A stretch of 64,000 nucleotides of DNA. It comes from Polyangiales bacterium (GTDB lineage: Bacteria > Myxococcota_A > Polyangia > Polyangiales > Houyiibacteriaceae). Shown here one piece after another: positions 10,401 through 45,160 of the stretch (positions within the stretch are counted from its first letter, which is position 1; the number at the start of each line of letters is the position of its first letter). The notes under the pieces were generated by a model. That model made no database searches and was not told where the DNA came from. It saw only the letters and a program-made list of their open reading frames with translations. The stretch is taken from NCBI GenBank assembly GCA_965227405.1, contig OZ245758.1:1577693-1641692 (forward strand), given 5' to 3'. Both the position numbers and the translations under genes were made by a program.

Positions 10401-11821
10401 TTCGACACGCCACGCGCGGCGGCTGCCTCGGGCGTCTCAAACGGGTCGTACTGACCGGCGCAGGTGGGGTTGAGGGTCTCGCCCGTCTCAGGATCGACGT
10501 GGCAGTAGCAGTAACCCTCAGCGTCGGAGGTCTGGCAGGAGACCGGCGGGTAGACCGCATCGGGCTCGTTACGCAGGTGACGCACCATGCGCATGTAGAC
10601 CTCGTTCCAACGTGCGGTGAGATCGAACGTCGGCTCGACGAGGTGACCCGGAAGCTCGGTGCTCGTGTACCAAACGATCTCGCGGGTGCGGCGATCGGCG
10701 TACGGCGTCGGGCTGCCGTCCTCTTCCACCCAGTCGCGCCAGATGTTCTGACGGTTGGCGTTGTAGTTGAGGAAGTCGGTGCTGCCCCAGGCCGGATCGT
10801 CGGCGCCGGTGCTGCGGTCGAAGGTGCGACGCTCGTTGCGGAAGTAGCCCGCTCGGTTGAAGCGGCTGTCGAGCCAGTTGACCGGCTCGTACTCGCGGGT
10901 GTCGGAGACCTTGAGGAACGCGTTGCGGATGTAGATGGCGGTCGTGGTGCAGGTCGGGGCGTCGCCGTAGATGGACGCACACCAGTTGACCGGGCGACCC
11001 GTGAACGGGTCAGGCACGTTACCCGGGCTGAGAAGCTCCTGGGTCACGAACGAGAAGTGGTAGAACTCGCCGGGCTCGTAGTCTTCGGCGAAATCGCGCT
11101 CTTCGCGGGTACAGGCTTCGGACGTGTCGTCGAGACCCTGGCACTCCATGAAGTCGAAGGTCGGGCGCCAGCTATCCGGGAAGTCGCTCTGGCCCTGGAT
11201 GTAAAGGTCGCTCGGCTCGCGGTTATAGAAACCAATCACCTCGTAGAGGTTGGCGATCTGGCCGTAGTAGGACGGCAGCATGTTCTTCGACCAGTCGACG
11301 CGCATGTAGTCGCGCTCGTACCAGCGTCGGTCGGTCGTGTTCTCTTGGATGACGTTCTGTTCTTCGCCCGTCAGCGTCGAGTACCCACGACGAATGTCGA
11401 AGTGGCTTTCGATTGAGAACGCCGCCACGGGGTGGGTCAACGTCTCGCCCGCCGTCGCTTCACCTTCAGGGTTAATCCCCTCGATGATCTCGTAATCTCG
11501 GTACGCGAAGAGGGTGTCCTCATCGATGACCCAGCGGATGCGGGGCATCGAGGTGTTGAAAATCGCCGGGTCGACAAAGTCGATCGCAGCGTCACCGGGG
11601 TAGGTGCCAACACCGGCGGCTTCGTAGTCGACGTCGATGACGACGCGCGAGTAGTACCAAGAGCCGCTGAAGAGCTGCTTGTCGACAACATTGACGCCGA
11701 CGCGGTTGACCGCGGGGTCTTTGCTGCAGGCGCCAACCAGCAGTGAAATGGTCACCAGCGCTACTGCAGAAGCTAGCGGGGTAACCAACGAACCAAGATG
11801 AGAAATGAACGAGCGCTTCAT
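7427..11821 (-). CDS. Giant secreted zinc metalloprotease (metzincin-like HExxHxxGxxH), paralogue 2
   Basis: 1464 aa. Signal peptide with lipobox (LLVGAC). Motif HEVGHCLGLRHSF. Collinear similarity to 2741-7426, e.g. RVGVNVVDKQLF vs RVQVNLVDKSIF; NTTDRRW(Y/F)ERDYMRVDWS is conserved in both. Confidence 0.75.
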   Translation of the reverse strand: MKRSFISHLGSLVTPLASAVALVTISLLVGACSKDPAVNRVGVNVVDKQLFSGSWYYSRVVIDVDYEAAGVGTYPGDAAIDFVDPAIFNTSMPRIRWVIDEDTLFAYRDYEIIEGINPEGEATAGETLTHPVAAFSIESHFDIRRGYSTLTGEEQNVIQENTTDRRWYERDYMRVDWSKNMLPSYYGQIANLYEVIGFYNREPSDLYIQGQSDFPDSWRPTFDFMECQGLDDTSEACTREERDFAEDYEPGEFYHFSFVTQELLSPGNVPDPFTGRPVNWCASIYGDAPTCTTTAIYIRNAFLKVSDTREYEPVNWLDSRFNRAGYFRNERRTFDRSTGADDPAWGSTDFLNYNANRQNIWRDWVEEDGSPTPYADRRTREIVWYTSTELPGHLVEPTFDLTARWNEVYMRMVRHLRNEPDAVYPPVSCQTSDAEGYCYCHVDPETGETLNPTCAGQYDPFETPEAAAARGVSNPYQCHVQVPEGAQPDMNNPALSDSDFYGWFDAEMVGSECINTLRINTCNRATIEANGGTRDGMNCQERGDLRFKFMSYVDQPGTGFLGVATLRTDPITGEVITGDANIGGPALDGYRTFALQTYDIVNGDIRREDFLIGEDVRDFIENLGNVQPPAIPREEFAPRPTSAESAGFLDRTELFNRMDAFVERGQQLAGPEGRASIFSDRLNTLRGTDIERRLMENHDTLAMAGIDILPDGLGPADINDAILDRVSPFRVSPMERLQYQNDVERRIGEANVYMPNEFTDNSVMEYVIRHRDWPRARLEIELNQTLMYQTQLHEVGHCLGLRHSFKASADNRNYDDNYYYIAENLPLPEPAEFDTDGINGLNPTEQATWEDAYHAMKERRELAGIERWMDSSIMEYTAQWYERTATGTGRYDDMAISYAYGDLVEVYDNAGGLNLDEINPINTDRLWVKSYHGGESCNVDADCPYSTSGANSALLLSSNSTVGLTQTCQPDTRGAAFGNICSNIDADMAALVTGPAPRYAPVEYKFCTDGRVGTDSECHRFDEGDSYREIVRNIAEQYDRQYLFTNFRRYRSSFSLGGYLFNRLIGRQFNILQSMFQDLLYRYTQDPDYRDSTGAFGFDDHFLSTADTLNFYGRIMSQPGLGAYRWDAGWERYQLTSLDPDTAGAQLSLPLGMARYQFSEYQNGISGISRIELIGSFYEKWFTMQMLTQRGWTTSYARDVPFWTNFYDLFPVEMQQIFTGMILGQPEAIAPRVICNSGSFPDCGEPRLVYPDFYRGDCSTPATCRPSVEERFGDELVVSAGSNVTLSFLATVFALSDFPVFFDTTFQNQLFVCQRGNGACFEPNAGDVAYVPGVTDIEDADYATFFSERYGKDFIAWQVEPSEDVPNQTSIGFEMVREAEETQFLLLALQTYRGDFGGDPIDVDNLDAATRDRLDALEYSLPTSISFLDEEVDRNDGRLRQLESQFFQLIQLQNQFGVRSYLRF

Positions 11822-15515: not shown

Positions 15516-16196
15516 TTAGATGCGCGTGATCACGATCGGCTCGGGTCGTCGATCTCGGGGACGACGCGGACGACGCGGACGACGAACTTCAGGCGCGAGT
15601 TCGAGTTCTTGGTCCCAGGTGAACACCTCGTCATGCGCCGAGATGTTGAACTCGACGTAGGGCTCTTCCGGGCGAAGTCGTGAGTTCACCGTCGTGTCGA
15701 GCTTGAGGTGAAAGGTCGTCTCTGGATCGGTCTCGCGATGGAAATGTGCGACGCCCTCGGCGTTGGTCGTGGCAACCACTTCGTTGTTCAGCAGCACCGG
15801 AACGTCGGGCTGACCCGTTCGGACAATAAACGCCGCTTGGCGCTTCATCGGCGGACACGCCAAGAGCATGTGCAGTCCGGCCTGAGCCTCTGGATCCAAC
15901 GCGCGGAAGCGGTGAAGACGAAGGGTCTGCGGCCCCTCGGGCTGAACATGGCCCTCTGGACACGTGTAGGTGATCTCGACAGCGGCACCATCAGGTCCGC
16001 GCAACATCGTCTGGACAACCCCATCCTCATCCGAAGCACCGACGTTCGCGCCGTTTGCGCTCACTGCCACACCGCCGAGCGGAAGGCCCAGATCGGACTC
16101 GGTTGTGAAGGTCACCGCAAAACTCGAACTGGTCGGCCCTGTCTGAGCTCCACACGCGAGAGCAAACAAAATCGACGTAATTCCGGTAATTCTCAT
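15516..16196 (-). CDS. Lipoprotein, hypothetical; terminal gene of the Tad-like operon
   Basis: Likely start MRITGITSILFALACG (lipobox). The ATG overlaps the stop of the upstream FHA gene as ATGA. C-terminal RRPRRPRRPRDRRPEP basic tail. Confidence 0.5.
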   Translation of the reverse strand: MRITGITSILFALACGAQTGPTSSSFAVTFTTESDLGLPLGGVAVSANGANVGASDEDGVVQTMLRGPDGAAVEITYTCPEGHVQPEGPQTLRLHRFRALDPEAQAGLHMLLACPPMKRQAAFIVRTGQPDVPVLLNNEVVATTNAEGVAHFHRETDPETTFHLKLDTTVNSRLRPEEPYVEFNISAHDEVFTWDQELELAPEVRRPRRPRRPRDRRPEPIVITRI

Positions 16197-17710
16197 GGCG
16201 TACACTCCGTCCCGTTCCGTCTGACATTCCGACGGCACTCAACCTTGGCTCGAATTACAGCAGCCGCGGCTGTGTATTCGGGGTTGGGATAGTCCGATGC
16301 CAAAAGCTCATAGAGAGCGAGAGCATCTTCGAGCTGATTGGTCATCGCGGCATCGACCGCCTTCTTCTCGATCAGCTTTTGCTCTGCGACTCGAATCGCT
16401 GCAGTGCGCTCTTCTTCCGTGGCGCGACGCCCGAGTTCATCCACGGCTTCTTCGCGCGCGGTTTCCAGGTCTGCGCTAATCACGCCCATGATGCGCTCGC
16501 GTTCGGCGACCTGCTGTTGCGCGACGCGCGCGCGATCGGCCCGGATTCGTTGCCGGAGGTTGTCGGCGATCGTCTGCGCTTCCTGCGCCTGACGTTCCTG
16601 CTCCGCCACGGCCGCTGCTTCGGCAGCCGCGCGTTGGCGCTTCTTCTGGATCGCTTGCAACGTCAGTGCGCCAAGAGCCACGAGCAGGGTGATCGCAAAG
16701 AGGATCATCGTGCGTTGCGGTGGACGCTCGAGCCCTTTCTTTTCCTCAAGCTCGTCGCCGGTTGGAATCGGTGGCAACGCAAACGAGCCACCGCCCGGTC
16801 CCACGTGCATGCGGTCGCCCGGCGGAGCCGCACCCGCACCCGCATCTTTCGGAATGATGTCCGTCGCGACCGACGACTGCATCAGCGTCGGGCGTTGCTC
16901 CACGACAGCACCACCACCAGGTCCAACCGCAGGCGGAAGTGCCTGCGCACCCGGCGCAGCCATCGGCGGAACATCACCGATCGCTGCAGGGTCGAGAACC
17001 TGGGTCTTGAACTCTTGGCGTCCGCCCATGACGGGCTTGGCGGTCGAGTCGTTCATCTGAAAACCGACTGTCGGCGGAGCCGCACGCCCACCACCGGGTG
17101 CAGAGGGAACACCGGTTCCGAGACGCGGTGCGGCCAAACCCGCGGGCGGTGCAACCACGCCACCGATTGGTGTGGGTGCGGATGGACCTCCCGAATGCGG
17201 CGGAACCATCCCCTCTTCGTAGATCGCCGTGGCGTCATCGTCCGCGAAGTCGTCAAGAGAACCGATGGGCAACGCGGCTTGTGAGGTGAGTGTCGGCGCG
17301 GGCGCGCGTGGTGCAACTGGTGCCGCAGGTGCAGCGGGTGCAGGTGGAGCGGCAACAGGGGCGGGTGCGGCAGGCGCAGCAACCGCTTGTGCACCCGACG
17401 TTTCGACCGCCATCGCTCCGCCGCCAAACTGAAGTTGGCATTGCCCCGTCAGCTGTCGCCACGACTGCACGGGCTGTCCGTTGACTGCAAGCGTGCCGGC
17501 CATGGGCGGTCCGACCCAGAGTGCTTTGCCGTCCCAATACAGTTCGAAGTGAACCGCTTGAACGCCTGGCGCTTGAACGTTCCAACCCGCATCGGCACCG
17601 CTTCCCACCGTGACGCGTGCTTCAGGTAGTGCGCTCGAAAGATCCCACATGGCCGCGCCGGAGTTACCAGCGACGAGCTTGACCCGAGCCCAATGCGAGG
17701 GAGCGTTCAT
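16193..17710 (-). CDS. FHA-domain protein with Pro/Ala-rich linker, a single TM helix and a C-terminal coiled coil
   Basis: N-terminal FHA-like fold (VTVGSGADAGWNVQ...VHFELYWDGKALWV...NGQPV). Long P/A-rich low-complexity region. TM helix ILFAITLLVALGALTL. Charged coiled-coil tail. Confidence 0.6.
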   Translation of the reverse strand: MNAPSHWARVKLVAGNSGAAMWDLSSALPEARVTVGSGADAGWNVQAPGVQAVHFELYWDGKALWVGPPMAGTLAVNGQPVQSWRQLTGQCQLQFGGGAMAVETSGAQAVAAPAAPAPVAAPPAPAAPAAPVAPRAPAPTLTSQAALPIGSLDDFADDDATAIYEEGMVPPHSGGPSAPTPIGGVVAPPAGLAAPRLGTGVPSAPGGGRAAPPTVGFQMNDSTAKPVMGGRQEFKTQVLDPAAIGDVPPMAAPGAQALPPAVGPGGGAVVEQRPTLMQSSVATDIIPKDAGAGAAPPGDRMHVGPGGGSFALPPIPTGDELEEKKGLERPPQRTMILFAITLLVALGALTLQAIQKKRQRAAAEAAAVAEQERQAQEAQTIADNLRQRIRADRARVAQQQVAERERIMGVISADLETAREEAVDELGRRATEEERTAAIRVAEQKLIEKKAVDAAMTNQLEDALALYELLASDYPNPEYTAAAAVIRAKVECRRNVRRNGTECTP

Positions 17711-17711: not shown

Positions 17712-18875
17712 TCAGTGCGTGGCGAGTCCTGCGCCGGGGTCGTTCGCGTCGGGGATCTCGTAACCCGCCGCGCGCGCCGCGTCGTAGAGCATTTGAGGAA
17801 GTTCGAGGCCCATCGCTCGAATCATGTCGAGACAACGGGGGAGTCGACCCGTGGGGTTGAACTCCGAAATCACCTTGCCGTTGTTGTCGCGACCAACGTA
17901 CTTGCGGATGAAAATATCTCCGAGCTGGTAGCCCGTGCTCGGCTCGTACCCCAGCACCTCGGTGATGTGGGTCACGCAACGCGAGCCATCGAGCAAGCGC
18001 GTGGTCTGCACGATGAAGTTGATGGCGGACGCGATCTGCGCACGCATCGCCTGGAGCGGAATCTCGACGTCACTCATCATCGCCATCGTCTCAAGACGGT
18101 TGAGTGTGTCGATCGGATAGGTCGCGTGAACCGTGGACAGACAACCACCGTGACCGGAGGTCATCGCCTGGATGAGTTCAAGAGCCTCACCGCTTCGAAT
18201 CTCACCCACCACGATTCGGTCCGGACGCATACGAAGCGTCGCCTTGAAGAGATCGCGAATGGTGACCTTGCCGCGTCCACGCGGGTCAGGGGGCTGTGCT
18301 TCCATCTGCACAACGTGCGGAAGCTGCAGCTGAAGTTCGCGCGCATCCTCGATGACGACCACGCGCTCTTCGGGAAGTGCAAAGGACGAGAGACAGTTGA
18401 GCAGCGAGGTCTTTCCCGAACCCGTACCGCCAGCGACGATCACGTTCTGTTTGGCGGCGACAACCGCCTGCATGACCTGGGCTGCTTCGGGTGTGAAGCT
18501 CTTGTATTGCAGGAGCTTTTCGATCGTCAGCGTGTCCTTGCTGAAACGACGAATCGCAACGCTGGGGCCATCTGGGGAAGCCGGCGGAATGACTGCCTCG
18601 ACACGCGAACCATCCGGCAAACGTGCTTCGAGAATCGGAACGAACTCGTTGATCTGGCGACCGACGAACTGCGAAAGGTTGCGCAGCGCGGACATCAACG
18701 CTTCGTGCGAGGGGAACTTCGCCTCGGTCTTGTAGAGCTGTCCGCCGCGCTCCACGTAAATCTCCGCAGGTCCGTTGATCATGATCTCGGACACCGAGGG
18801 ATCATCGAGAAAGGGTCGAATCGGATCGAAGAAGCTCAAGAGCGTCTGTTCGAAGACTTCACGCGGAATCGGCAT
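17712..18875 (-). CDS. cpaF: CpaF/TadA-family secretion ATPase (second ATPase of the locus; no FHA domain)
   Basis: 387 aa. Walker A VIVAGGTGSGKTSLLN, Asp box, Walker B and His box are all characteristic of the type II/IV secretion NTPase family. Stop/start are coupled with the upstream TPR gene. Confidence 0.85.
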   Translation of the reverse strand: MPIPREVFEQTLLSFFDPIRPFLDDPSVSEIMINGPAEIYVERGGQLYKTEAKFPSHEALMSALRNLSQFVGRQINEFVPILEARLPDGSRVEAVIPPASPDGPSVAIRRFSKDTLTIEKLLQYKSFTPEAAQVMQAVVAAKQNVIVAGGTGSGKTSLLNCLSSFALPEERVVVIEDARELQLQLPHVVQMEAQPPDPRGRGKVTIRDLFKATLRMRPDRIVVGEIRSGEALELIQAMTSGHGGCLSTVHATYPIDTLNRLETMAMMSDVEIPLQAMRAQIASAINFIVQTTRLLDGSRCVTHITEVLGYEPSTGYQLGDIFIRKYVGRDNNGKVISEFNPTGRLPRCLDMIRAMGLELPQMLYDAARAAGYEIPDANDPGAGLATH

Positions 18876-19534
18876 CAGACTCCTCCCTCGGGAGCGGGCG
18901 TGTCGCCCTCAGCGGGCTCGGTGTTGGCCGAACCGTCGGTCACATGATCGTCGAGTCGCTCGATGCGCTGAACCGTCGGTCGAAGTAGTTCACGAACTTC
19001 ATCGGCATGGTTGCCGTCAGGAGCGAGTTCGATATAGCGCTGCAGATACTGACGCGCGGCGTCCATGTCCTCGTGCTGCTCGTGATGGAGCATTCCTAGC
19101 GCGTAGTAGGGAACCGGTTCCTCGGGTGCGTCGCGCACCACCTTCTCCAGTTCAAGTCGCGCCTCTTCGTCGGAGCCCATCGCGATGTGCAAGGTGGCAA
19201 CGAGGTAACGAAGCGCCCAGTTTTCGGGATGGTCACGCAGGTAGGGATCCGCATGGTGCAGCGCGATGGCGTAGCGCTGCGACGCGATACAAACACGAAG
19301 CAGCGCTGGAAGTGCTTGCTCCCGGTCGTACCCCTTCTCGATCGCCGCCAGGATGTACTGCTCAGCACGCACCAGGTCACCACGCTCCGCCATGCCCAAT
19401 CCGTGGGCATAGAGCTCCTCCGCTTGGACGTCGTCCAAGGGATCTGGAGTGGGTGTTCGTGATTGGGAGGATGAGCCTCCGCATCCAAGAAGCACCGCAA
19501 GAATGATCGTCGACCTCAGCGGTGAACGCGCCAT
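18875..19534 (-). CDS. TPR-repeat lipoprotein (TadD-like)
   Basis: Probable start MARSPLRSTIILAVLLGCGGSS (lipobox). The rest is TPR-like helical repeats (AEELYAHGLGMAERGD...). Confidence 0.6.
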   Translation of the reverse strand: MARSPLRSTIILAVLLGCGGSSSQSRTPTPDPLDDVQAEELYAHGLGMAERGDLVRAEQYILAAIEKGYDREQALPALLRVCIASQRYAIALHHADPYLRDHPENWALRYLVATLHIAMGSDEEARLELEKVVRDAPEEPVPYYALGMLHHEQHEDMDAARQYLQRYIELAPDGNHADEVRELLRPTVQRIERLDDHVTDGSANTEPAEGDTPAPEGGV

Positions 19535-19556: not shown

Positions 19557-20438
19557 TCACTCTCGACGCTCTCGCTCCTTGTCCCAGCGCCCTTGAACGA
19601 TGCGACGGGTTCGATCGAGCCACACCACGTACTCGTTCTCATCATCGAGATGGTCGACCAAACGACTCAACGCACGGGTTTCGACAAACGAACGCTCCCA
19701 GTCCTCGGTCTGCAACGCATGGTGCAGGCGTAGCCGACGCGCAGCGTATTCCGCTTCCACGGTTTCTTGCAGTTCGGCTGCAAGAGCATCCATTTCGGCT
19801 GCCTTGTCGGTGTTGCTCGCGTCTCGGTAACACTGCGCGGCCTGCTTGTAGAGCATCACAGACCGAACGCCATCACGGAGGTCGTAATTGAGTCGGTCTC
19901 CGCGCGCGTGAGCACGAAACTCGGTTTGGACTGCACGTTCCGATGCCTCTTGCGAACCTTCGGGGCACGCTTGTGCCTGCTCTTCACCGAAGAGCGCAGG
20001 CGGCTCGATACCCTCGCCGGACGGAAGCCCTTCCGCCGAGCGCTTGGACAAAATCATCCAACCGCCACCGGCAACCGCAACCACCAACGCGATCAAAAGA
20101 ACCGGGCTGACGCCACCGTCTTTGTCGTCTTTCGACGCGCGCTTGTTGGTGACGCGAATGCGCAAGCGACCGATCGCAAACTCGCTGCCCCAGGGAACGA
20201 TGCCACTGGTGAAGGGCTTGCCCTTGAGCATGGTCGGTGTGAGCGCGCCCTGGGATGTACTGACCCAGCATCCTTCTTTGCCGCGTGGCGCGAGAAGAAG
20301 ATGTTCGAGCTCGAGTTCCCGTGCAGCGGGCACCGAGATCTGCGCGGAGCCGGACTTGCCCAGCGTGACCTGCGCACCCTCGATCGGAAACCGATCTTGG
20401 GTTCCATCTGGATTCACGATTTCGACAAATGCATCCAC
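19557..20438 (-). CDS. FHA-domain membrane protein
   Basis: N-terminal FHA-like region (VTLGKSGSAQISVP ... GKPFTSGIVPWGSEFAIGRLRIRV). TM helix VLLIALVVAVAGGGWMIL. C-terminal soluble domain. Confidence 0.6.
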   Translation of the reverse strand: MDAFVEIVNPDGTQDRFPIEGAQVTLGKSGSAQISVPAARELELEHLLLAPRGKEGCWVSTSQGALTPTMLKGKPFTSGIVPWGSEFAIGRLRIRVTNKRASKDDKDGGVSPVLLIALVVAVAGGGWMILSKRSAEGLPSGEGIEPPALFGEEQAQACPEGSQEASERAVQTEFRAHARGDRLNYDLRDGVRSVMLYKQAAQCYRDASNTDKAAEMDALAAELQETVEAEYAARRLRLHHALQTEDWERSFVETRALSRLVDHLDDENEYVVWLDRTRRIVQGRWDKERERRE

Positions 20439-20439: not shown

Positions 20440-21342
20440 TCACAACCCCGTAGCCATCCACTTGACGACGAACGGCCCCAAGAGAAGGAGAATGATACAG
20501 ACGAACATCAACATGAGGGGACCCATCATCATGATGCCCGCCTTTGCGGCGTTTTCCTCTGCGCGAACACTGCGACGCATGCGCAGCATTCTCGCCTGAA
20601 TCATCAAGACCTCGGAAAGCGGCGTACCCTTGGCCTCGGCCTGAACAACCGTGTTCACGAAGTCTTTCACCGCATCGATCGGCACTCGCTCGGCAAACCC
20701 TTCGAGTGCTTTTCGACGGGTGTGACCGAGTTCGAGCTCCTGCAGAATGCGACCGAACTCTTCCTTGATGACCGCGTCCTTCGACGACGACTTGTCGACG
20801 ATCTGCTTCACGGCACCCGGGAAGTCCAAACCAGCACTCATGCAAAGTGCGGCAAGGTCGATCGAGGTCGGAAGCGATCGGTTGACCGACTTGAACCGCT
20901 CATTCGCCTCACCGGTCAGTCGCGACCAGGGGATGTACGCACCCATGAAGATCGCGACCATTACCAAGATGACCGGCAAGTCGAGCATGAACACGGCAAA
21001 GAAACCAAAGCCCATCATGCCGATGCCGCACATCAGGCTGAGTGCGATGAACTCGTTGGCGCTCAGCCCAAGCCAGTCACCCGCGTACGTGATTTGCTCC
21101 TGAACCGACTTGCGGAGCTTCGGCATCGGAACGCCTTCGAACCAACCTGCGACCAAGCGCATGGCCGGTTCCATGGTTGCAAAGAGACCGCCGGCTTCCA
21201 TCGCTCGACGACGCTTCAAACCACGAAGGCCCAGTTCGGGACGTTTCGCCGGCGGGTTGCGCCCGAGGATGAACGTAATGACAAAGAGACCGCCGGCGAC
21301 TAGCGCCAAGGCTCCAAATCCGAGTAGGCGAGTCGGGCTCAT
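20440..21342 (-). CDS. tadC: TadC-like pilus assembly inner-membrane platform protein (T2SS-F domain)
   Basis: T2SSF-type topology and size. Start chosen at MSPTRLLGFGALAL, whose ATG overlaps the tadB stop. The longer ORF in the track would overlap tadB by 115 nt. Confidence 0.7.
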   Translation of the reverse strand: MSPTRLLGFGALALVAGGLFVITFILGRNPPAKRPELGLRGLKRRRAMEAGGLFATMEPAMRLVAGWFEGVPMPKLRKSVQEQITYAGDWLGLSANEFIALSLMCGIGMMGFGFFAVFMLDLPVILVMVAIFMGAYIPWSRLTGEANERFKSVNRSLPTSIDLAALCMSAGLDFPGAVKQIVDKSSSKDAVIKEEFGRILQELELGHTRRKALEGFAERVPIDAVKDFVNTVVQAEAKGTPLSEVLMIQARMLRMRRSVRAEENAAKAGIMMMGPLMLMFVCIILLLLGPFVVKWMATGL

Positions 21343-22208
21343 CAGATGTCCACCGCGAGAATCTTTCGGGCCCAAACGATCGAGATGAACCACATGGTCA
21401 ACGCGATGCCCGTGATCGTGTAGCCGATAAAGCCGGATGCGAGCGGCTTGAGCCACTCCGGATCGATCAGGCTCAACACACCCGACATGACGAAGGGCAT
21501 GGCACCCAACACGACTGTCTGACCCTTACCTTCGGCGGTCTTGGTCTTCACGACGCCCTCGAGACGTGACATCTCGCGAAGCGTACCGGCCGAACTTTCC
21601 AACACCGCGGAGAGGTCACCACCGGTCTGACGCGCGATGACGATCGTGGCCAACGCACCTGCGATGGTCTGACTCTGCATGCGCTCGGCAGCGTTCAACA
21701 CGGCCTTATCCACCGGCGTACCGAGCTGGTTCTCCTTCACGAGGAGGTCGAGTTCCTCGCTCATCGGTGCCTGAACCAGCTGAACGGTGGACTTGATCGC
21801 CTCACCAATGGCGGGCGTTGCCTTCAGTGCGTTCGAAAGCATGAGCAACCAACCATCGAGCTGCGCTTCAAGCTGTTCGATGCGCTTGCCCTGCTCCGAC
21901 TCAAGCCACGCCCAAGGGATGAACGCGATACCCATCAACGCGATCAACAGCGCGGGGTGACCGGTCGCCGTAAACGCCAGACCACAAGCTGCAAGGGCGA
22001 GCGCCTGAGTGCGCGCGATCTCGGTGCCGCTCTTTTTGAGCAGCAGAAACTTCACGTACTTGTCGAGGAAGCGAACGTACTGGTCCCACTTGTCTTTGAC
22101 GGGACTGCTCGGCATCGCGAGCGCCATGTAGATCGCGCCGAATCCCCCGAGGCCCATCAGAGCGATGGCCAACCAACCCGAGAGCGGGCTTTGAAGAAAC
22201 GCGGTCAT
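21342..22208 (-). CDS. tadB: TadB-like pilus assembly inner-membrane platform protein (T2SS-F domain)
   Basis: 288 aa. N-terminal TM, cytoplasmic T2SSF domain, C-terminal TM pair. Located directly downstream of the ATPase. Confidence 0.7.
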   Translation of the reverse strand: MTAFLQSPLSGWLAIALMGLGGFGAIYMALAMPSSPVKDKWDQYVRFLDKYVKFLLLKKSGTEIARTQALALAACGLAFTATGHPALLIALMGIAFIPWAWLESEQGKRIEQLEAQLDGWLLMLSNALKATPAIGEAIKSTVQLVQAPMSEELDLLVKENQLGTPVDKAVLNAAERMQSQTIAGALATIVIARQTGGDLSAVLESSAGTLREMSRLEGVVKTKTAEGKGQTVVLGAMPFVMSGVLSLIDPEWLKPLASGFIGYTITGIALTMWFISIVWARKILAVDI

Positions 22209-23938
22209 AGATACTCCCCGTCGTCGACCAAACCGTAGGTGATGAACTCGTCCAAGAACGAGGGCAGGTAGCCGCTTGCGCGGAACTCACCCGTGATCGT
22301 CCCGTCGGACTCAGTACCGGTTCGGTGGTACAGAAAGATGTCGTTCAACACGAACTCGCCATCGTCGTTGAGGCCGTTGAGTTCGGTGATCGCGCTCACG
22401 CGACGCGAACCATCGGAGAAACGCGTCTGCTGCACGACCAAGTGAACACTGGTGGAGATCTGCTCGCGGATCGCGCGAGAAGGAAGATCGATACCGCTCA
22501 TGAGACACAGGGTCTCGATACGTTTCACAGCCTCTTCAGGACTGTTGGCGTGGGTCGTGGTCATCGAACCTTCGTGACCGGTGTTCATGGCCTGAAGCAT
22601 GTCGAGTGCCTCACCGCCGCGACACTCACCGACGACGATTCGGTCCGGACGCATACGCAACGCGTTCTTCACCAGGTCGCGAATCGAGTACTCACCGCGA
22701 CCCTCCATGTTCGGCGGGCGCGTTTCGAGCGACACAACGTGCGGCTGCTCAAGACGAAGCTCGGCAGCATCCTCGATCGTCACAATACGCTCGGCAGAGG
22801 GAATGGCGGAACTGAGCACGTTAAGCAGTGTGGTCTTACCCGAGCCGGTACCGCCACTGATGACGACGTTCTTTCGCACCTTCACGGCGCGAATCAGGAA
22901 CATCGCCATGCGTTCGTTCATCGATCCAAAGCCCACCAAGTCCTTGATGGTCAGGGGATTCTTCTGGAACTTACGAATCGTGATGCAGGCGCCGTTGATG
23001 GCCAGCGGCTTGATGATCGCGTTCACGCGCGAGCCATCTTTGAGGCGCGCATCGACGAGCGGAGTCGACTCATCGATACGTCGACCCAACGGCGTGACGA
23101 TACGTTCGATGACCGCGCGCGCCGACTCATCGTCGGTGAAGCGCAAATCGGTCGCCCAGATCTTGCCGCCCTTCTCGATGTAAATCTTGTAGGGGTGGAC
23201 GACCATGATCTCGCTGCAGTCGTCGTCGGCGAGCAAGCGCTCGAGCGGTCCAAGACCCAAGGCCTCATCCGCCATTTCACGCTTGAACGCGTCCTGATCG
23301 GCCTGCGGCGGAATGTCGTGCTGCAGCTGCTGGAAGATGCGGTGCAAGGCCTGCATGACCTTGGGACGCATCGTGACGTCGTCCATCGCGCCGCGATCGA
23401 GACTCGCGAGGTCCAAGTGGTCGAGCAACATGCGGTGCACGCGACGACGCAACTCGACGCTAATGTCCGAGGTGCCACCTGCGATCTTCAGGAAGCGCTC
23501 GTCCTTGCCCGACGTGGTGCTGTCGAGATCGACTTTGCGCGAACTGGAACTCTGTGGCTTTTGCTGCTGCGCTTGCTGTGGCGGTTTGGGAACCGTCGTT
23601 GCAACCGGTTGTGAACGCGGCGGAGGCGGAGGCTCGCCAATCCGTCGCAGACGAACCAGGTAGGGTCCGATCCGCAACGGAATGTTTGGCGGCGTGTCCA
23701 CCTTGCTGCGCTTGACGCGTTGACTGCCCATCAACGTGCCGTTGGCAGACTGATCGGTGAGTTTGAAGCCCCGTGAAGACGGCTCGACGATCAGGTGTCG
23801 ACGGCTGACTTCGGGGGATGGGAGGACGACATGACAGCTTGGATCCCGCCCGATCACGACGGGACCGTCCGCTTGGATCGGTAGTTCTTCAACCGACCCG
23901 TCGGGCATCTCGATGGAAAGGAGAACGCCGGCTGTCAT
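22205..23938 (-). CDS. cpaF: FHA-domain / CpaF(TadA)-family secretion ATPase fusion
   Basis: 577 aa. N-terminal FHA (VVIGRDPSCHVVLPSPEVSRRHLIVE...FKLTDQSANGTLMG). Pro/Gln-rich linker. Complete CpaF core with Walker A VVISGGTGSGKTTLLN. Confidence 0.85.
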   Translation of the reverse strand: MTAGVLLSIEMPDGSVEELPIQADGPVVIGRDPSCHVVLPSPEVSRRHLIVEPSSRGFKLTDQSANGTLMGSQRVKRSKVDTPPNIPLRIGPYLVRLRRIGEPPPPPRSQPVATTVPKPPQQAQQQKPQSSSSRKVDLDSTTSGKDERFLKIAGGTSDISVELRRRVHRMLLDHLDLASLDRGAMDDVTMRPKVMQALHRIFQQLQHDIPPQADQDAFKREMADEALGLGPLERLLADDDCSEIMVVHPYKIYIEKGGKIWATDLRFTDDESARAVIERIVTPLGRRIDESTPLVDARLKDGSRVNAIIKPLAINGACITIRKFQKNPLTIKDLVGFGSMNERMAMFLIRAVKVRKNVVISGGTGSGKTTLLNVLSSAIPSAERIVTIEDAAELRLEQPHVVSLETRPPNMEGRGEYSIRDLVKNALRMRPDRIVVGECRGGEALDMLQAMNTGHEGSMTTTHANSPEEAVKRIETLCLMSGIDLPSRAIREQISTSVHLVVQQTRFSDGSRRVSAITELNGLNDDGEFVLNDIFLYHRTGTESDGTITGEFRASGYLPSFLDEFITYGLVDDGEYL

Positions 23939-23949: not shown

Positions 23950-25113
23950 TCAGTCCTCGTCGGAGGACTCGTCCTCTGCGGTGTTGGTTCGAAGTCGCGC
24001 ACCGGGCGGTCGCGGCTGCTCCACAAGCTCAACCTCGGCAACGCCGCCGCGGAAGTCCTCGTAGATACGAATCGCTTCCTGGATTCGGTTGCGTTGTTGA
24101 AGCGGAATGCCCTGCACGATCGTGGGAATGATGAAGAGCAAGGTCTCGCTCTCTTCCCAACGACGCGAGTGCGATCCGAAGAGTGCACCCAGCACAGGAA
24201 TCTGGCTCAGGCCCGGGAAGCCATCGCGGCTGCGCTGACCCGAACGCGCGATCACGCCACCGAGCACGACCGACTGACCAAGCTCCATGTTGACCAAGGT
24301 GGACAACGTCGAAACGTTACGACCGGGAACACCGGAACCACCGTCATCGGTCAGGTCCGAGACGTCTGCGTTGATCTGGATCTCGAGACGACCACTCTCC
24401 GGATCGTAACGAGGTGTGCAGGTGAGGATTGTGCCGAACTCGATGGTTTCGATCGAACCACCCACGTTGCCCGGAACGAGGAAGTTCACCTCGCCGCCGA
24501 CGTTCACCTGAGCTTGCTGACCGTTGACGGCCACAACGCTCGCCTGACGATAAATGCGCGACCATCCGTTGGACTGCGCGATATCCAAGCGCGGAAGAAT
24601 CGATGAGCTGGTCAGGTTGATGCTGGTCTGCGCACCACCCTCACCTTGAACCCACTGGGTGTTGATGGCCGCAATACTCTGCTGCTGTCCACCGCCACCG
24701 ATCGAGTCGGGGAACCGGATACCAATCGCATGCGAGTACCGATCGACGAGCTGCACAAAGTAGAGGTCGAGACGAATCGTCTCTTTCTCTTCGATCCGCC
24801 CCTCCGGGACTTCCTCGGTCCCGCCCGGCACGGTGATGCGGTACTGCACCTGCGAGCCATCGCGCATGATCATCAGCAGCGATGTGCGACCGGGCTGAAC
24901 GCCGACCAGGATGAAACGGCTCTGATCAGAGGTGAGGCGAACATCGACGATGCCGCGCGTGCCTTCCGAGTAGCTGCGCACACCTTCGGCGGAAATGGAT
25001 GTCTGTTCGCCAACCTCGACCGTAATTTCGCGCTCGCGCTGCGCATGTACGGTCGCGGTTGCTGCCACGAGCGCCACACAACAAGCGGCTCGAATTAGGG
25101 TTCTGTGACTCAT
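23950..25113 (-). CDS. cpaC: CpaC/RcpA-type secretin
   Basis: Signal peptide. N-terminal pilus-formation domain (ITVEVGEQTSISAEGVRSYSEGTRGIVDVRL...). C-terminal secretin domain (VVLGGVIARSGQRSRDGFPGLSQIPVLGALFGS). Confidence 0.85.
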   Translation of the reverse strand: MSHRTLIRAACCVALVAATATVHAQREREITVEVGEQTSISAEGVRSYSEGTRGIVDVRLTSDQSRFILVGVQPGRTSLLMIMRDGSQVQYRITVPGGTEEVPEGRIEEKETIRLDLYFVQLVDRYSHAIGIRFPDSIGGGGQQQSIAAINTQWVQGEGGAQTSINLTSSSILPRLDIAQSNGWSRIYRQASVVAVNGQQAQVNVGGEVNFLVPGNVGGSIETIEFGTILTCTPRYDPESGRLEIQINADVSDLTDDGGSGVPGRNVSTLSTLVNMELGQSVVLGGVIARSGQRSRDGFPGLSQIPVLGALFGSHSRRWEESETLLFIIPTIVQGIPLQQRNRIQEAIRIYEDFRGGVAEVELVEQPRPPGARLRTNTAEDESSDED

Positions 25114-25907
25114 CGGTTTCCTCGAATCTCCTCGATCATGAAAGCTCTGGGACGCGAACGCTGCGCCATCGCCAGTTTCAGAGGCTCGATCAAATCCTCA
25201 TCGGTGGTCTCGGGAACGTCTTGAATGATCTGCATGTCGTCGCCGTTGCGAAGAAGCAGACTGAGATCTCCACGATCACGTCCATGCGTGATCATCGTCG
25301 CTTGCTCGATCGTCACCGCGACACTGACATCGACACCACGCGTGACTGCGCGATCGCTCGACTCGTCTTCGGCTTCGTCGGGTGCGCCGGTGTCGAGACC
25401 CACGGCCAGGACCAGCACGTTTTGAAGAAGCGGAACCGTGACGCGCGAAACGGAGCGCGGTCGGTTTCCGGTGAGCAAGATGTCGACGCGGTTGCCCGGA
25501 CGAAGCAAGCCACCAAACGACGCGGCATCGGACACGCGGATCGTCATCGCGCGCATGCCTTGACGAAGAAGCGCACTCAGATCGCGACGTGAGCCTGCGT
25601 TGGTGCTCAGATCGGTCCAGAACAGAGACTCGTCCGAGTTGATTCGGTTCAGGACGCGAACACCGAGAATGCGCTCGCGATCGGTGGACAGAATGTGGCG
25701 GTCTTCAATGTGCGCCTGAGGAAGCGAGGTTGTGCCCAGCTCCTCGATCGTGATCGGTTCGCCGACCTCGATGTCTGCCGTCGCACGCAGAACGTCGATG
25801 CGATCACCACCGGCCGCTTCCACGGAGAATCGCTTTGTGTAGAGCACAAAGAGAGCGATTCCCGCGATCACGACGATCGTTGCAGCTAGGAGTGCTGTCC
25901 GGTTCAT
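25110..25907 (-). CDS. cpaB: CpaB/RcpC-type Flp pilus assembly protein (SAF domain)
   Basis: N-terminal TM LLAATIVVIAGIALFVL. SAF-like segment LRATADIEVGEPITIEEL. Typical size and gene position upstream of cpaC. Confidence 0.8.
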   Translation of the reverse strand: MNRTALLAATIVVIAGIALFVLYTKRFSVEAAGGDRIDVLRATADIEVGEPITIEELGTTSLPQAHIEDRHILSTDRERILGVRVLNRINSDESLFWTDLSTNAGSRRDLSALLRQGMRAMTIRVSDAASFGGLLRPGNRVDILLTGNRPRSVSRVTVPLLQNVLVLAVGLDTGAPDEAEDESSDRAVTRGVDVSVAVTIEQATMITHGRDRGDLSLLLRNGDDMQIIQDVPETTDEDLIEPLKLAMAQRSRPRAFMIEEIRGNR

Positions 25908-26023
25908 CCTTCAGGCCCAAGCACAAGCAGGGTGCGGACGCTGACCATACCGCACCCGGGGGCTCAGTTCATCAACAGGTTTGTCGATGTCCGCTGAAAA
26001 TGACCTGGATTTGGAGTGTCGGC

Positions 26024-26590
26024 CTACACCAAGGGGATGACGTGTCGGTGAACAATCACCGCGATACACCCGACCAGAAATGCAGGCCCAATCCGAATCC
26101 GCGAGAGACTTTCGCGTTTGATCTTGCGCTTTCGGGCCTTCGGGAGAAACGGGTTGGTCAGGATGATTCCAACATTCTTGAAGGTTTGAAGCAGCTTCCC
26201 CTCGATCGCGAGTTTGCCGATCCCAAAGATCCCCACGGCAAAGAGCGTGGCGATTCCGACTTCGAGACCGATCTTCAGACCCACGATTCCACCGACGGCT
26301 GCGAGGAGCTTGACGTCTCCGCCTCCTCCGGCTCGCAGTTCTTGGCCGGGTGTCGGAATTCGAGCCTTAAATAGCAGAAACGGCACCAGCCCACACCCGA
26401 CGATGCCGAGTATTGAGGCGAGTGCCGCTTCTACGCCGCCCAACAAACCGTGGGCGATTGGCGCCGCAATCAAGGGTGGGAAGGTCAGCCAGTTTCGAAT
26501 CTTGCCCGTCCGGTAGTCCGTGATTGCAGCAACGAGACAAATGCTCGTGGCAATCGCGAGACCGACAAGATCCGGCCGGAGCTGAGGCAT
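26024..26590 (-). CDS. cpaA: A24-family prepilin peptidase (CpaA/TadV)
   Basis: 188 aa polytopic protein. Conserved Asp sites ITDYRTGKIRN and GGGDVKLLAAVG are typical of TadV/CpaA. Confidence 0.8.
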   Translation of the reverse strand: MPQLRPDLVGLAIATSICLVAAITDYRTGKIRNWLTFPPLIAAPIAHGLLGGVEAALASILGIVGCGLVPFLLFKARIPTPGQELRAGGGGDVKLLAAVGGIVGLKIGLEVGIATLFAVGIFGIGKLAIEGKLLQTFKNVGIILTNPFLPKARKRKIKRESLSRIRIGPAFLVGCIAVIVHRHVIPLV

Positions 26591-26616: not shown

Positions 26617-26838
26617 TCAGGGCAGGCCGTTGATGGCGGCGGTCGACTGGTCCGCCTTACCGGTCACGGCGTTACCGAAGTTCTGCCATGCAACGATCGC
26701 GATAATCGCAATCAAAATCAGGATGATGACGTACTCAACCGTCGAAAGTCCCTCTTCGTCTTGAAGAAGCGCCTTGTTCTCGAGATCGATCATGGGTTCA
26801 ACCCTCTCCTTTGGTACCGAGCTATGCCGGACGTTCAA
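26617..26838 (-). CDS. flp: Flp-family pilin precursor
   Basis: 73 aa. Flp processing motif G/LSTVEYVIILILIAIIAIVAW (G-XXXXEY followed by a hydrophobic segment). Strong RBS AAGGAGAG 7 nt upstream of the ATG at 26838. Confidence 0.85.
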   Translation of the reverse strand: MNVRHSSVPKERVEPMIDLENKALLQDEEGLSTVEYVIILILIAIIAIVAWQNFGNAVTGKADQSTAAINGLP

Positions 26839-27176: not shown

Positions 27177-28556
27177 TCAGAATCTTACGGTCACGGGTCG
27201 GGCGGTATCGACGCCCCCACCTGCGCCGCCGAGGTAGATTCCTTGTCCCCAGCACTGCACGGCGTTGTCCACGATCGCACAAGAATGGCTGCGACCCGCG
27301 ACCACAAAGCTCGCTCCGCTGTCGATCACGCTTCGCGGAGACAGGACCATCAGGCCTGCTGCAACGCCGGCCTGGAAGAACTCGTTCCCGCCCCAACAGG
27401 CGACCTGGCCACCGGTGAGCAACGCGCAGTTGTGAAAACCGCCTGAAGAGATCTGCGTGGCTGTGGGTTCAGGCTCACCCTCTTCCACCAGCGAAGCGAA
27501 CGAGACTCGGGTTGGACGCAGCTGTCCCACTGTGCCGCCGTTTCCGATCTGTCCGAGGTCGCCGCGACCCCAGCACCAGACCTCGCCGTCGAGATCGAGC
27601 GCACATGTGTGAAAACCACCAGCCACGAGCTGAATCGGATCTTCAAGACTCGGTTCACCATCGGGGCGCGAGAGGTTCGCGGTGACGGGAGTGGAGCTGT
27701 TGTTGTTGGTGCCATCGCCGAGCTGGCCTTCGCTTCCAACGCCCCAGCAACGGATCGCTTTGCTTCCCGTTTCTTCGTTGGCGGTGGCCACACACGTGTG
27801 CGCCGAACCCGTGGTGAGCAAGTACGCGCCCGTCACGCCACCGACGAATACCGGAGAGCTCTGGTTCATCAACGAACCGACACCAAGCTGGCCATCTTCT
27901 CCGTAGCCCCAGCAGTACACACTGCCGTCTTCCCCGAGCCCACAGGTGAATGCGCGTCCACCACCAAAACGGCTCACCGCCAAATCGGTCAGTCGCCGCG
28001 GCGTGATGATTTGCGTCAGATCGACCACCGCATCTTCGGTTCCGTTGCCCACCTGCCCGTTTTCGTTGTTGCCCAAACAAAAGAGCTGACCATCAGCCAG
28101 GTTGCAGAGTGGATCGCCCAAGAACACGCGACCTCGAAGAGTTCGGCCAAGATTGAGCGGCTGCGGCACACCTTCGACAATCCAACACGTGGGTCGAATC
28201 ACCGGATCGAGTTCACCGTCGTCGACTCCGCCTGCATCCGGTCCGCCCGCGTCCGGTGCACCTGCGTCGGGCATTCCAACGTCGGGCATTCCAACGTCGG
28301 GCATTCCGCTGTCGGGCATTCCTGCATCCATGTCGACGCCGGAGTCGTCCATCCCTGCGTCGTCCGTGCCTGCATCCGTGCCTGCATCGGTTCCGGCATC
28401 GGTGGCTCCTGCATCAGGAGCGCTCGCGCCCACCGTTTGGATCGCACACGTGAAGATGTCCCCGGTTTCGACCGCGGTGAGCACCCGCGGTTGTTCTTCT
28501 TCATCCGTTCCACCGCACGCCACAGCAAGACACGCAAGCAAGACCACAAGTCGCAT
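27177..28556 (-). CDS. RCC1-repeat (beta-propeller) lipoprotein with an N-terminal (M/A)PD(V/A)G pentapeptide repeat tract
   Basis: Lipobox MRLVVLLACLAVACGG. Repeated ...C(W)G.N..GQLG.G... RCC1 blades, e.g. AIRCWGVGSEGQLGDGT. Confidence 0.75.
   Translation of the reverse strand: MRLVVLLACLAVACGGTDEEEQPRVLTAVETGDIFTCAIQTVGASAPDAGATDAGTDAGTDAGTDDAGMDDSGVDMDAGMPDSGMPDVGMPDVGMPDAGAPDAGGPDAGGVDDGELDPVIRPTCWIVEGVPQPLNLGRTLRGRVFLGDPLCNLADGQLFCLGNNENGQVGNGTEDAVVDLTQIITPRRLTDLAVSRFGGGRAFTCGLGEDGSVYCWGYGEDGQLGVGSLMNQSSPVFVGGVTGAYLLTTGSAHTCVATANEETGSKAIRCWGVGSEGQLGDGTNNNSSTPVTANLSRPDGEPSLEDPIQLVAGGFHTCALDLDGEVWCWGRGDLGQIGNGGTVGQLRPTRVSFASLVEEGEPEPTATQISSGGFHNCALLTGGQVACWGGNEFFQAGVAAGLMVLSPRSVIDSGASFVVAGRSHSCAIVDNAVQCWGQGIYLGGAGGGVDTARPVTVRF
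28236..28325. repeat. In-frame 15-bp tandem repeat (about 6 units, two of them identical) encoding the (M/A)PD(V/A)G tract of the RCC1 lipoprotein
   Basis: Units gtcgggcattccaac x2, gtcgggcattccgct, gtcgggcattcctgc, with degenerate units upstream (gtccggtgcacctgc ...). Confidence 0.7.
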
Positions 28557-43882: not shown

Positions 43883-45160
43883 CTAGAGCTTGGCGTCGTG
43901 CTTCACGACGCTCACATCCCGGATTCCATCGACGGAACCAAGTAGCGGCTTGAGCGTCTTCGCGTCACCGACGGCCACAATCGCTAGGTTCTGCGCTCGG
44001 ATTCTGCGCTGCACCGCTTCGTGCGCATCCTTTCGTCGCACGCCACCGACCGCTTTGCGGTAACCACCCTGGTGCTCATCGCCGAGCCCGTACAGCTGAG
44101 CGTTCATCCGAACATCGAGTCGCCTGTACGCGGTGTCTTCATCGAAGCAGCGCGCTCCACGCAGGTAACGCTTTGCGCGTCGGATCTCGTCTGCGGTCGA
44201 CCCCTTCTCGACCCACTGTTCTAAGAGCTGAAGCTGCAACGCTAAACAATCGCGCGCGTTGTCCACAGAGGGATGCGTCCACATGCGCCAAGCATCGCGT
44301 TGTCGCGACGCACCAAGGCTGCTGTACGCCGAGTAACTCCACCCGCGAACGGCACGAACCTCTTGCATCAAGCGCGATGTGAACATCCCGCCAAACGCCG
44401 AGTCCGCGACCAGAAGCGGAAAATAGTTCGCGTCACGCAGCTTCACGCCAAGCGTCGCGATCCCAAGTTGCGTTTGACTGCGACCAGGCTTGTCCACGAT
44501 GAGAAGACGTCGGCCCTTGGGCATCTTCGGAGCACCGAGTTTGGTCGAGCGCGAACGACGACCCGAAAGACCGCCAAAGTAGGTTCGCGCGAGCCGACTC
44601 AGTTCCTTGTCATCGATCGCTCCTGCCGCGCCGATCAGCAAGTTGCCCTTGGTCCACATTTCCGCATGACGATCGATCAGGTCGCTTCGGCGGATCTTTC
44701 CCATGCTGGCGTGGGTACCCCCAGTCGGTCGTCCGTAGAGATGGCCGTTGAACAGAAGTCGGCTCAGATGTCGCGAAGCAAGCGCGTGATCGTCGTCCTG
44801 AAGGCTCACCAAGTTCGCGCGAATGCGACGCTTTGCACGCGCGAGATCGGCATTGCGAAACGCCGGCTCGAAGAGCAGCTCGGCAAGCAACGCCACCAGA
44901 GGTTCGATATTGCGGGCCAGAACCGACGCCTGCACCCCTACGATCTCACGTGAGATCGTGAAGCTTACGCGTGCACCAAGCCGAGCAATCTCCGCGTCGA
45001 CCTGTTCGGAACTCCTCTTGCGCGTACCACGACGAAGCAAACGCGCCATCACGCGCGTCAGACCTTCTTTGCCTTGGGGATCGCCCAACGCACCACCCCG
45101 GATCTTGATCGCAAGATCGACCAAGGGGAGGTCGTTGCTGTGCTCGACCAAAAGCTTCAC
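43883..45160 (-). CDS. M16 (pitrilysin) family peptidase, non-catalytic or beta-type subunit
   Basis: 425 aa. M16 fold and length. Lacks the HxxEH zinc motif. Translationally coupled to the upstream M16 gene by a 4-nt overlap. Confidence 0.65.
   Translation of the reverse strand: MKLLVEHSNDLPLVDLAIKIRGGALGDPQGKEGLTRVMARLLRRGTRKRSSEQVDAEIARLGARVSFTISREIVGVQASVLARNIEPLVALLAELLFEPAFRNADLARAKRRIRANLVSLQDDDHALASRHLSRLLFNGHLYGRPTGGTHASMGKIRRSDLIDRHAEMWTKGNLLIGAAGAIDDKELSRLARTYFGGLSGRRSRSTKLGAPKMPKGRRLLIVDKPGRSQTQLGIATLGVKLRDANYFPLLVADSAFGGMFTSRLMQEVRAVRGWSYSAYSSLGASRQRDAWRMWTHPSVDNARDCLALQLQLLEQWVEKGSTADEIRRAKRYLRGARCFDEDTAYRRLDVRMNAQLYGLGDEHQGGYRKAVGGVRRKDAHEAVQRRIRAQNLAIVAVGDAKTLKPLLGSVDGIRDVSVVKHDAKL

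Follow-up and report, generated by a model that had tools for sequence, protein, structure and literature searches.

An FHA domain tethered to the motor ATPase of a Tad/Kil-like pilus cluster in a Polyangiales bacterium

Introduction

TadZ (CpaE) has been called ubiquitous in canonical Tad systems; it is required for the positioning of the machine, and a cryo-tomography fit in Caulobacter crescentus arranges it as a ring of six dimers around the motor ATPase CpaF (PMC13170226). How, then, is a Tad motor positioned and engaged where this partner is not found? The question is raised by a stretch of 64,000 nucleotides from a Polyangiales bacterium (contig OZ245758.1 of assembly GCA_965227405.1, positions 1,577,693 to 1,641,692; hereafter the window), in which a tad gene cluster encodes a CpaF-type ATPase with an N-terminal FHA domain (FHA-CpaF). 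On balance, we lean towards the reading that the tethered FHA domain is a recruitment module of the motor which replaces TadZ and docks through phosphothreonine, in a kinase-dependent manner and together with a degenerate FHA-like scaffold.

The fusion of FHA to CpaF is already described, and is not a new discovery. Seef et al. (2021) reported that KilF (MXAN_3107), the ATPase of the Myxococcus xanthus Kil system, is 'itself fused to an N-terminal FHA domain', noted further FHA proteins in the kil clusters, and proposed an FHA signalling cascade on the model of the Pseudomonas aeruginosa type VI secretion system (T6SS) (PMC8460266). A cryo-electron microscopy paper on CpaF from 2025 grouped the arrangement FHA-IDR-CpaF (IDR, intrinsically disordered region) as 'class III', found 'mostly in betaproteobacteria' (PMC12019362). 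The fusion studied here adds to this class an uncharacterised protein from a lineage of myxobacteria that has been little studied. The role of FHA domains in Kil/Tad-like machines is open (PMC12428579), and we offer a concrete model for it.

Results

Domain architecture of the motor ATPase

The initial annotation placed the gene at 22205-23938 of the window and read its product as an N-terminal FHA domain, a Pro/Gln-rich linker and a full CpaF core. The coordinates are exact, the gene lies on the minus strand, and domain scanning together with structure prediction bore out each part of the reading. The Pfam FHA profile (PF00498) matched residues 27-90 with E=2.2e-12 and 47.6 bits (cut-off 20.7), over profile positions 1-66 of 67; the Yop-YscD_cpl profile also scored above its cut-off (E=2.4e-8). 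An AlphaFold2 (AF2) model of residues 1-104, with a predicted local distance difference test score (pLDDT) of 88.2, is all-beta with ten strands, and all 50 of the 50 matches listed by Foldseek against the PDB are FHA or FHA-like domains (template-modelling score 0.65-0.82, E about 1e-6). They include MDC1, Rv0020c FhaA, ArnA, GarA, YscD (4a0e), another protein of type III secretion systems (4d9v) and DgcB (6hc1).

As seen from the full-length model, the FHA domain (residues 5-99) is followed by a disordered stretch (residues 107-147, pLDDT below 50), by helices at residues 154-227 and then by the two globular domains of CpaF. The linker, taken as residues 101-153, contains 10 Pro, 7 Gln and 7 Ser among its 53 residues. 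The core matched Pfam T2SSE (PF00437) at residues 227-504 with E=1.3e-61 and keeps intact catalytic motifs, with Walker A at 363-370, the Asp box at 388-394, Walker B at 432-438 and the His box at 454-463. Among solved proteins, C. crescentus CpaF is the nearest relative (E=3.7e-118 over residues 106-570). The gene lies in a tad operon with those for TadB/TadC platform proteins, CpaB, secretin, prepilin peptidase and a Flp pilin candidate. It encodes a hexameric CpaF/TadA-family motor ATPase of a Tad/Kil-like type IVc pilus machine, and the protein follows the published class III layout, in which an FHA domain and a disordered tether (about 50 residues here) precede the three-helix bundle, the N-terminal domain and the ATPase domain.

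The N-terminal region is not a generic domain of CpaF proteins. It is absent from C. crescentus CpaF and from the CpaF-type paralog encoded in the same cluster (17712-18875), and among the 150 nearest proteins that represent clusters at 50% identity, 53 carry an FHA domain. Nearly all of the top 120 matches to the protein have both PF00498 and PF00437, so the fusion is the norm in its own clade. The closest homologs (95-96% identity) come from metagenome assemblies, and the named matches are Polyangiales, Sandaracinus and Myxococcota bacteria, which points to an uncultured, Sandaracinaceae-like myxobacterium as the source of the window; among the loci listed, FHA-CpaF was also found in Myxococcota, PVC-group phyla and Spirochaetota.

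Phosphothreonine-binding residues

The FHA domain has the canonical phosphothreonine-binding residues: G30-R31, S45-R46-x-H48 and S64-x-N66-G67-T68. Across 31 homologs of its clade (63-96% identity) G30, R31, S45, R46, H48, S64, N66 and G67 are invariant, and the tether is hypervariable in both length and sequence, with not a single conserved position. KilF orthologs keep the same binding residues (IGR…SK[YT]H…STNGT). The phosphothreonine contacts (R, S, H and N) show no variation in this clade or in the KilF clade, whereas nearby surface positions and the tether vary freely, a pattern that is difficult to account for unless phosphopeptide binding is under selection. The conservation argues for, and does not prove, such selection in the myxobacterial lineages, and makes a coupling of the motor to Ser/Thr phospho-signalling plausible; on this view FHA-CpaF would be phospho-dependent. 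The same hypothesis has already been published for the Kil system (PMC8460266, PMC12428579).

One possible ligand lies within the protein. All 31 clade members have T156, in the motif G-T-[AS]-x-[IV], with an aliphatic residue at +3; C. crescentus CpaF has Gln at this position. In the full-length model the motif sits in the short helix that opens the three-helix bundle. As a general FHA ligand it was rejected, for neither the listed canonical-FHA representatives from other clades nor the inspected KilF orthologs have the motif. We retain T156 as a weak, clade-specific ligand candidate.

Absence of TadZ and its mutual exclusion with FHA

A TadZ hidden Markov model (HMM), built from 15 open reading frames (ORFs) just upstream of FHA-less CpaF genes, found no TadZ/ParA-MinD-like ORF within the 64-kb window. 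Pfam confirmed two of the seed ORFs and one Bdellovibrio fusion protein as ParA/MinD-type, one of the seeds also having a receiver domain. The canonical partnering with TadZ/CpaE is not seen here, which sets the locus apart from canonical Tad systems without bearing on the family membership of the ATPase.

We then compared the neighbourhoods of related CpaF genes in a genome scan that covered the best 80 loci of a partial list, with flanks of up to 10 kb. Among the 83 loci compared, ParA/MinD (TadZ/CpaE) was present in none of the 46 FHA-CpaF loci, 40 of which have more than 2 kb of upstream sequence, and in 35 of the 37 FHA-less loci, 24 times as a gene of its own and 11 times as a fusion with CpaF. 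In both FHA-less loci that lack TadZ, the sequence breaks off at a contig end. The same picture came from the 150 nearest cluster representatives, with 53 FHA-CpaF, 54 TadZ-CpaF, 43 proteins with neither domain and none with both. FHA-CpaF and TadZ-CpaF are interleaved on a rough tree, suggesting that the pattern is probably not the result of one single event; tree and parsimony counts carry no support values and are rough indications only. No statement of an exclusion between FHA and TadZ was found in the literature searched.

TadZ(ParA/MinD)-CpaF fusions are themselves common. The 54 counted above (among P0241-P0390) extend well beyond Bdellovibrio, in which such a fusion was recently described as atypical (10.64898/2026.07.08.737194), and in the genome scan they were found at loci L019, L042, L044, L047, L051, L054, L059, L070, L071, L074 and L080.

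FHA-like membrane proteins and a second ATPase

Two further proteins of the cluster have FHA-like N-domains, each with a predicted transmembrane segment. In the 293-residue protein a cytoplasmic FHA-like domain (residues 3-103) precedes the membrane segment (residues 106-132) and a C-terminal domain. The FHA-like domain matched, over its whole length, an iterated HMM of CpaF-type FHA domains from which it had been left out (E=2e-8), and was also matched by hhalign to the CpaF-FHA profile of the clade (E=6e-4); its FHA signature reads GK/E/H/T. Orthologs stand at the same position in L001, L002, L005-L007 and L018. The 505-residue protein consists of an FHA-like N-domain (about residues 22-109), a Pro/Ala-rich disordered region, a predicted membrane segment (residues 331-355) and a charged C-terminal tail. 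Its FHA-like domain is the more weakly supported of the two: the Pfam FHA profile scored below its cut-off (E=0.0022, 18.8 bits), the leave-out HMM gave E=2e-4, and hhalign against the clade FHA profile gave no match. Both domains are degenerate at the phosphothreonine-binding positions.

Neither protein has a Pfam annotation above cut-off or an NCBIfam annotation, and orthologs of both stand at the same positions in related clusters. Further FHA ORFs were more frequent at FHA-CpaF loci in general (19/43, against 1/37 at FHA-less loci; p=1e-5 among the best 80 loci, confounded by taxonomy).

The cluster also encodes a second CpaF-type ATPase (17712-18875), which, as the initial annotation had it, lacks an FHA domain. 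It likewise lacks the tether and the three-helix bundle, has intact catalytic motifs, and shares 43% identity with the FHA-CpaF core. It is kept at the same position in Polyangia-type clusters, which would thus be two-motor Tad machines; Kil and canonical Tad systems have been described with one ATPase. This minimal CpaF could be a separate motor without an FHA tether, for example for retraction.

Kinases near the motor gene

The initial annotation further suggested that a kinase encoded at 37923-39671 might gate the motor. The ORF does encode a genuine Hanks-type kinase (Pkinase, E=1.9e-42), but the proposed gating found no support. The gene lies 14 kb from the motor gene, and between the two are at least seven unrelated genes, including those for an RCC1-repeat protein, a trypsin-like protease, an S9 peptidase and an M17 aminopeptidase, and a PEGA/TPR gene on the opposite strand. 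It is this PEGA/TPR gene, and not the tad genes, that the kinase gene adjoins. The closest related loci were compared with flanks of up to 10 kb, shorter than the 14 kb that separate motor and kinase here; L001-L006, L018 and L024 showed no kinase, whereas L007 and L008 did. The kinases near related loci are at most 36% identical to the kinase of the window, over the catalytic domain only; none is orthologous to it.

Hanks kinases were modestly enriched at FHA-CpaF loci, with 8/43 against 0/37 (p=0.006 among the best 80 loci, confounded by taxonomy). With myxobacterial genome sizes of about 9 and 13 Mb and 99-317 kinases per genome, a Poisson estimate puts the chance of at least one kinase in a 64-kb window at about 0.5-0.8. 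That range of 99-317 Hanks-type kinases per myxobacterial genome, the authors of which caution against reading meaning into proximity (PMC2887360), is the reason why one kinase in 64 kb is to be expected. Pfam searches of 43 larger ORFs and HMM scans of all ORFs of the window, for PP2C phosphatases and for further kinase or FHA genes, turned up this kinase alone.

Discussion

A model for motor recruitment

We propose that the tethered FHA domain would serve as the recruitment module of the motor and stand in for TadZ. By binding phosphothreonine on a partner it would dock the hexamer at the inner-membrane platform; the phosphothreonine might lie in disordered or cytoplasmic regions of the FHA-like membrane proteins, of the platform proteins or of the motor's own tether. 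Engagement of the motor, and with it pilus extension, would depend on a Hanks-type Ser/Thr kinase encoded elsewhere, with the degenerate FHA-like membrane proteins probably supplying the fixed component of the cytoplasmic scaffold, one that needs no phosphorylation. The model rests on the absence of TadZ, on the strictly conserved pocket in the myxobacterial clades, and on the degenerate FHA-like partners in the same operon. That recruitment may be the controlled step is consistent with what is known of relatives: NG-KilF is spread diffusely and gathers at sites of prey contact, making recruitment the regulated step in the one relative studied (PMC8460266), and in the Bdellovibrio fusion TadZA the TadZ region and a linker recruit the ATPase to a polarity hub (10.64898/2026.07.08.737194).

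A broader form of the model can be put forward tentatively, as a possibility that we would not yet bet on. FHA and TadZ may be mutually exclusive, alternative ways to position and engage the Tad motor across phyla, an FHA scaffold replacing the ParA/MinD ring in Kil as well. Such a scaffold would combine six tethered, phosphothreonine-competent FHA domains of the motor with the degenerate FHA-like domains of membrane proteins. A constitutively positioned adhesion pilus would thereby have become one that Ser/Thr kinase signalling can recruit when it is needed.

Several points weigh against phosphothreonine-dependent recruitment. Among the more distant FHA-CpaF representatives, 27 of 53 are substituted at one or more key binding residues, indicating that the fusion can persist without canonical phosphothreonine binding. 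No conserved phospho-acceptor can be assigned, most loci of the clade have no kinase within 10 kb, and neither a kinase nor a phosphatase can be assigned to the cluster. The FHA-like domains of secretion machines, such as YscD and PrgH, function without phosphorylation. A review from 2025 still calls the FHA proteins of Kil 'promising candidates' and leaves their function open (PMC12428579). The exclusion statistics, for their part, derive from a partial list of loci whose sequences are related, so that Fisher tests overstate independence, and they count flanks of no more than 10 kb, so that a TadZ elsewhere in the genome is possible; the kil genes of M. xanthus are split over two loci (PMC8460266).

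In one alternative, which we regard as rather unlikely, the FHA domain is a phosphorylation-independent scaffold like that of YscD/PrgH in type III secretion and, with the two FHA-like membrane proteins, builds a cytoplasmic ring that holds the motor without kinase input. The match to Yop-YscD_cpl above cut-off, the presence of YscD and 4d9v among the fold matches, the degenerate binding positions of both neighbouring domains, the substitutions in about half of the distant representatives and the lack of a conserved kinase or phosphatase in the cluster would all fit such a ring. It leaves the pattern of conservation to be accounted for, however, since a domain that only held the motor in place would not be expected to keep its phosphothreonine contacts invariant in this clade and in the KilF clade while the surface around them and the tether drift.

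The FHA domain might also regulate the motor from within, by binding phosphothreonine in its own tether or at T156, in cis or between subunits, and so switch assembly or ATPase activity and not recruitment. Such self-binding has precedents in Bdellovibrio DgcB and in Rv1747 of Mycobacterium tuberculosis, and the structure of DgcB FHA bound to its own phosphorylated N-terminal peptide (6hc1) was among the fold matches. The tether offers 11 Ser/Thr among 53 residues, and T156 has the conservation and the +3 aliphatic residue described above. We nonetheless consider regulation from within improbable, because no tether position is conserved, the T156 motif is restricted to the clade, and T156, lying in a short helix of the model, may be merely structural. 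Still further down in probability, and close to being dismissed, is the proposal that the motor is gated by the kinase at 37923-39671 as its cognate kinase. Its favour lies in being a genuine Hanks-type kinase in the same window and in the modest excess of kinases near FHA-CpaF loci as a class; against this stand its distance, the unrelated genes in between, its PEGA/TPR neighbour, the lack of an orthologous kinase near related loci, and the sizeable probability of its presence by chance.

Relation to Kil and other systems

FHA-CpaF resembles KilF in its FHA-linker-CpaF layout, in following directly after a short secretin, in the absence of TadZ and in the further FHA proteins of the cluster. 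The two nevertheless differ in many respects. Their FHA domains are only about 26% identical, and the KilF linker is acidic (Glu/Tyr-rich), whereas that of the window protein is Pro/Gln-rich; KilF orthologs of Corallococcus, Citreicoccus and Archangium (L035, L036, L025) have a canonical FHA domain first and then the acidic linker. The M. xanthus genes form two loci, with KilD (FHA and TPR) downstream of the ATPase; here the cluster is contiguous, TadB/TadC are downstream, FHA-like and TPR domains are on separate small proteins, and there is no KilD-type protein downstream. Kil has been described with a single ATPase and no TadD pilotin, in contrast to the second CpaF and the TadD-like TPR lipoprotein found here. 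Kil assembles at sites of prey contact and is needed for contact-dependent killing.

To place the protein, we compared core identities over the three-helix bundle and the N-terminal domain. These are about 50% to KilF, 51% to a betaproteobacterial class III protein, 45% to Bdellovibrio, 39% to C. crescentus CpaF and 36% to its own paralog. On a rough neighbour-joining tree without support values, the clade of FHA-CpaF, 28 of whose 31 leaves bear an FHA domain, is separate from that of KilF. In view of this separate clade and the core identity of about 50%, the window protein represents a Polyangia lineage of its own within the shared architectural class and is not a KilF ortholog. The trimmed KilF block from the eLife supplement, used as a query, gave matches of at most 412 residues, and a partial KilF-like sequence (P0147) was used in its place. 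A placement by one 113-column block of the published supermatrix was discarded, as identities of 39-47% to most taxa gave no discrimination.

Class III proteins such as Achromobacter xylosoxidans E3HIW0 have an identical domain order, and a Ramlibacter example is about 41% identical over the aligned region, including FHA, and shares the N-terminal motif 'IEMPDG' with the window protein. The difference lies in the binding positions, all of which the window protein keeps and at which the beta- and gammaproteobacterial examples examined have R replaced by K or S and S by G or A. Such class III CpaFs (P0170, P0179, P0196, P0201, P0206) mostly have Lys or Ser for the key Arg and Gly or Ala for the key Ser; judging by these residues, their FHA domains may not bind phosphothreonine.

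With C. crescentus CpaF (class II; 9e24, 8rkd) the protein shares the ATPase family, the catalytic motifs and an N-terminal disordered region before the three-helix bundle, but the C. crescentus protein has no FHA domain and works with the CpaE/TadZ ring (PMC13170226). Bdellovibrio bacteriovorus TadZA offers a parallel in having a targeting module on the ATPase N-terminus via a flexible linker, a module that is, however, a ParA/MinD-like TadZ binding the polarity hub RomR and not FHA (10.64898/2026.07.08.737194). The PpkA/PppA/Fha1 pathway of the P. aeruginosa H1-T6SS, the model cited by Seef et al., is a functional analogy: there an FHA protein makes the assembly of an envelope machine dependent on Ser/Thr phosphorylation. 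In that system the FHA scaffold is a separate protein and the cluster supplies both kinase and phosphatase, whereas here FHA is fused to the motor and neither enzyme is in the cluster.

The gene cluster and its surroundings

The features of the cluster are collected in Table 1. All 12 genes listed, from the pilin gene to the conserved last gene, are on the minus strand and are transcribed in the order Flp pilin candidate, prepilin peptidase, CpaB, secretin, FHA-CpaF, TadB, TadC, 293-residue protein, TPR lipoprotein, second CpaF-type ATPase, 505-residue protein and small conserved protein. The same gene order is seen in Sandaracinus amylolyticus and in related metagenome-assembled genomes. The FHA-CpaF ORF encodes 577 residues from an ATG start, with a ribosome-binding site (GAAGGG) 5 nucleotides upstream. 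Its start lies 11 nucleotides after the stop codon of the secretin gene and its stop codon overlaps the start of TadB (ATGA), which makes it an operon-internal gene. The short secretin is limited to a pilus N-terminal domain and a secretin domain.

Table 1. Features of the tad cluster and of its FHA-CpaF gene, in window coordinates
Feature	Position	Strand	Evidence
FHA-CpaF, Tad/Kil-like pilus motor ATPase, class III layout	22205..23938	-	Pfam, solved-structure match, full-length model
FHA domain, residues 4-100	23639..23929	-	Pfam, AF2, Foldseek, residues invariant in 31 homologs
Disordered Pro/Gln/Ser-rich tether, residues 101-153	23480..23638	-	pLDDT, alignment, composition
Three-helix bundle region, residues 154-227, starting with the clade-specific invariant motif G-T156-[AS]-x-[IV]	23258..23479	-	Alignment, model
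CpaF N-terminal domain and C-terminal ATPase domain, residues 228-577, with Walker A, Asp box, Walker B and His box	22208..23257	-	Pfam, motifs
Short secretin, CpaC/RcpA-like, 387 residues	23950..25113	-	Pfam Secretin and T2SS-T3SS_pil_N
CpaB/RcpC-like protein	25110..25907	-	
Prepilin peptidase, A24 family	26024..26590	-	
Flp-type pilin candidate (…EEG/LSTVEYVIILILIAIIAI…)	26617..26838	-	
TadB-like platform protein, T2SSF	21342..22208	-	
TadC-like platform protein, T2SSF; start set by homolog match	20440..21333	-	
293-residue membrane protein, degenerate FHA-like N-domain and C-terminal domain	19557..20438	-	HMM, hhalign, predicted transmembrane segment
TPR lipoprotein, LLGC lipobox, TadD/PilW-like pilotin candidate	18875..19534	-	
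Second CpaF-type ATPase, 387 residues	17712..18875	-	
505-residue protein, degenerate FHA-like N-domain	16193..17710	-	Sub-threshold Pfam, leave-out HMM, transmembrane segment
Conserved last cluster gene, lipoprotein-like N-terminus	15516..16196	-	

The prepilin peptidase gene directly adjoins that of CpaB in this window, with a gap at 25907-26024. In relatives (L002, 3276-7906) four genes stand between the two, encoding a TadE-like protein and products of 740, 183 and 322 residues, and none of them has a match within the 64-kb window. Between the pilin gene and the gene of the trypsin-like protease is the gene of the RCC1-repeat (beta-propeller) protein (27177-28556, minus strand), which has a signal-peptide-like N-terminus and a homolog in the same place in L002.

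Further from the cluster, two giant ORFs lie in tandem on the minus strand (2741-7426 and 7427-11821; 1561 and 1464 residues), the sole Pfam match of each being a short Met-zincin (DUF4953) motif. A transposase-type integrase gene with an rve core domain (50060-50932, plus strand) adjoins a SIR2_2-domain gene (51050-52813, minus strand), a pair that may be a small mobile or defence-related insertion. Two M16 (insulinase-type) peptidase genes (43883-45160 and 45157-46440, minus strand) adjoin a gene (46493-48829, minus strand) whose product of 778 residues has seven MopE-like putative metal-binding repeats.

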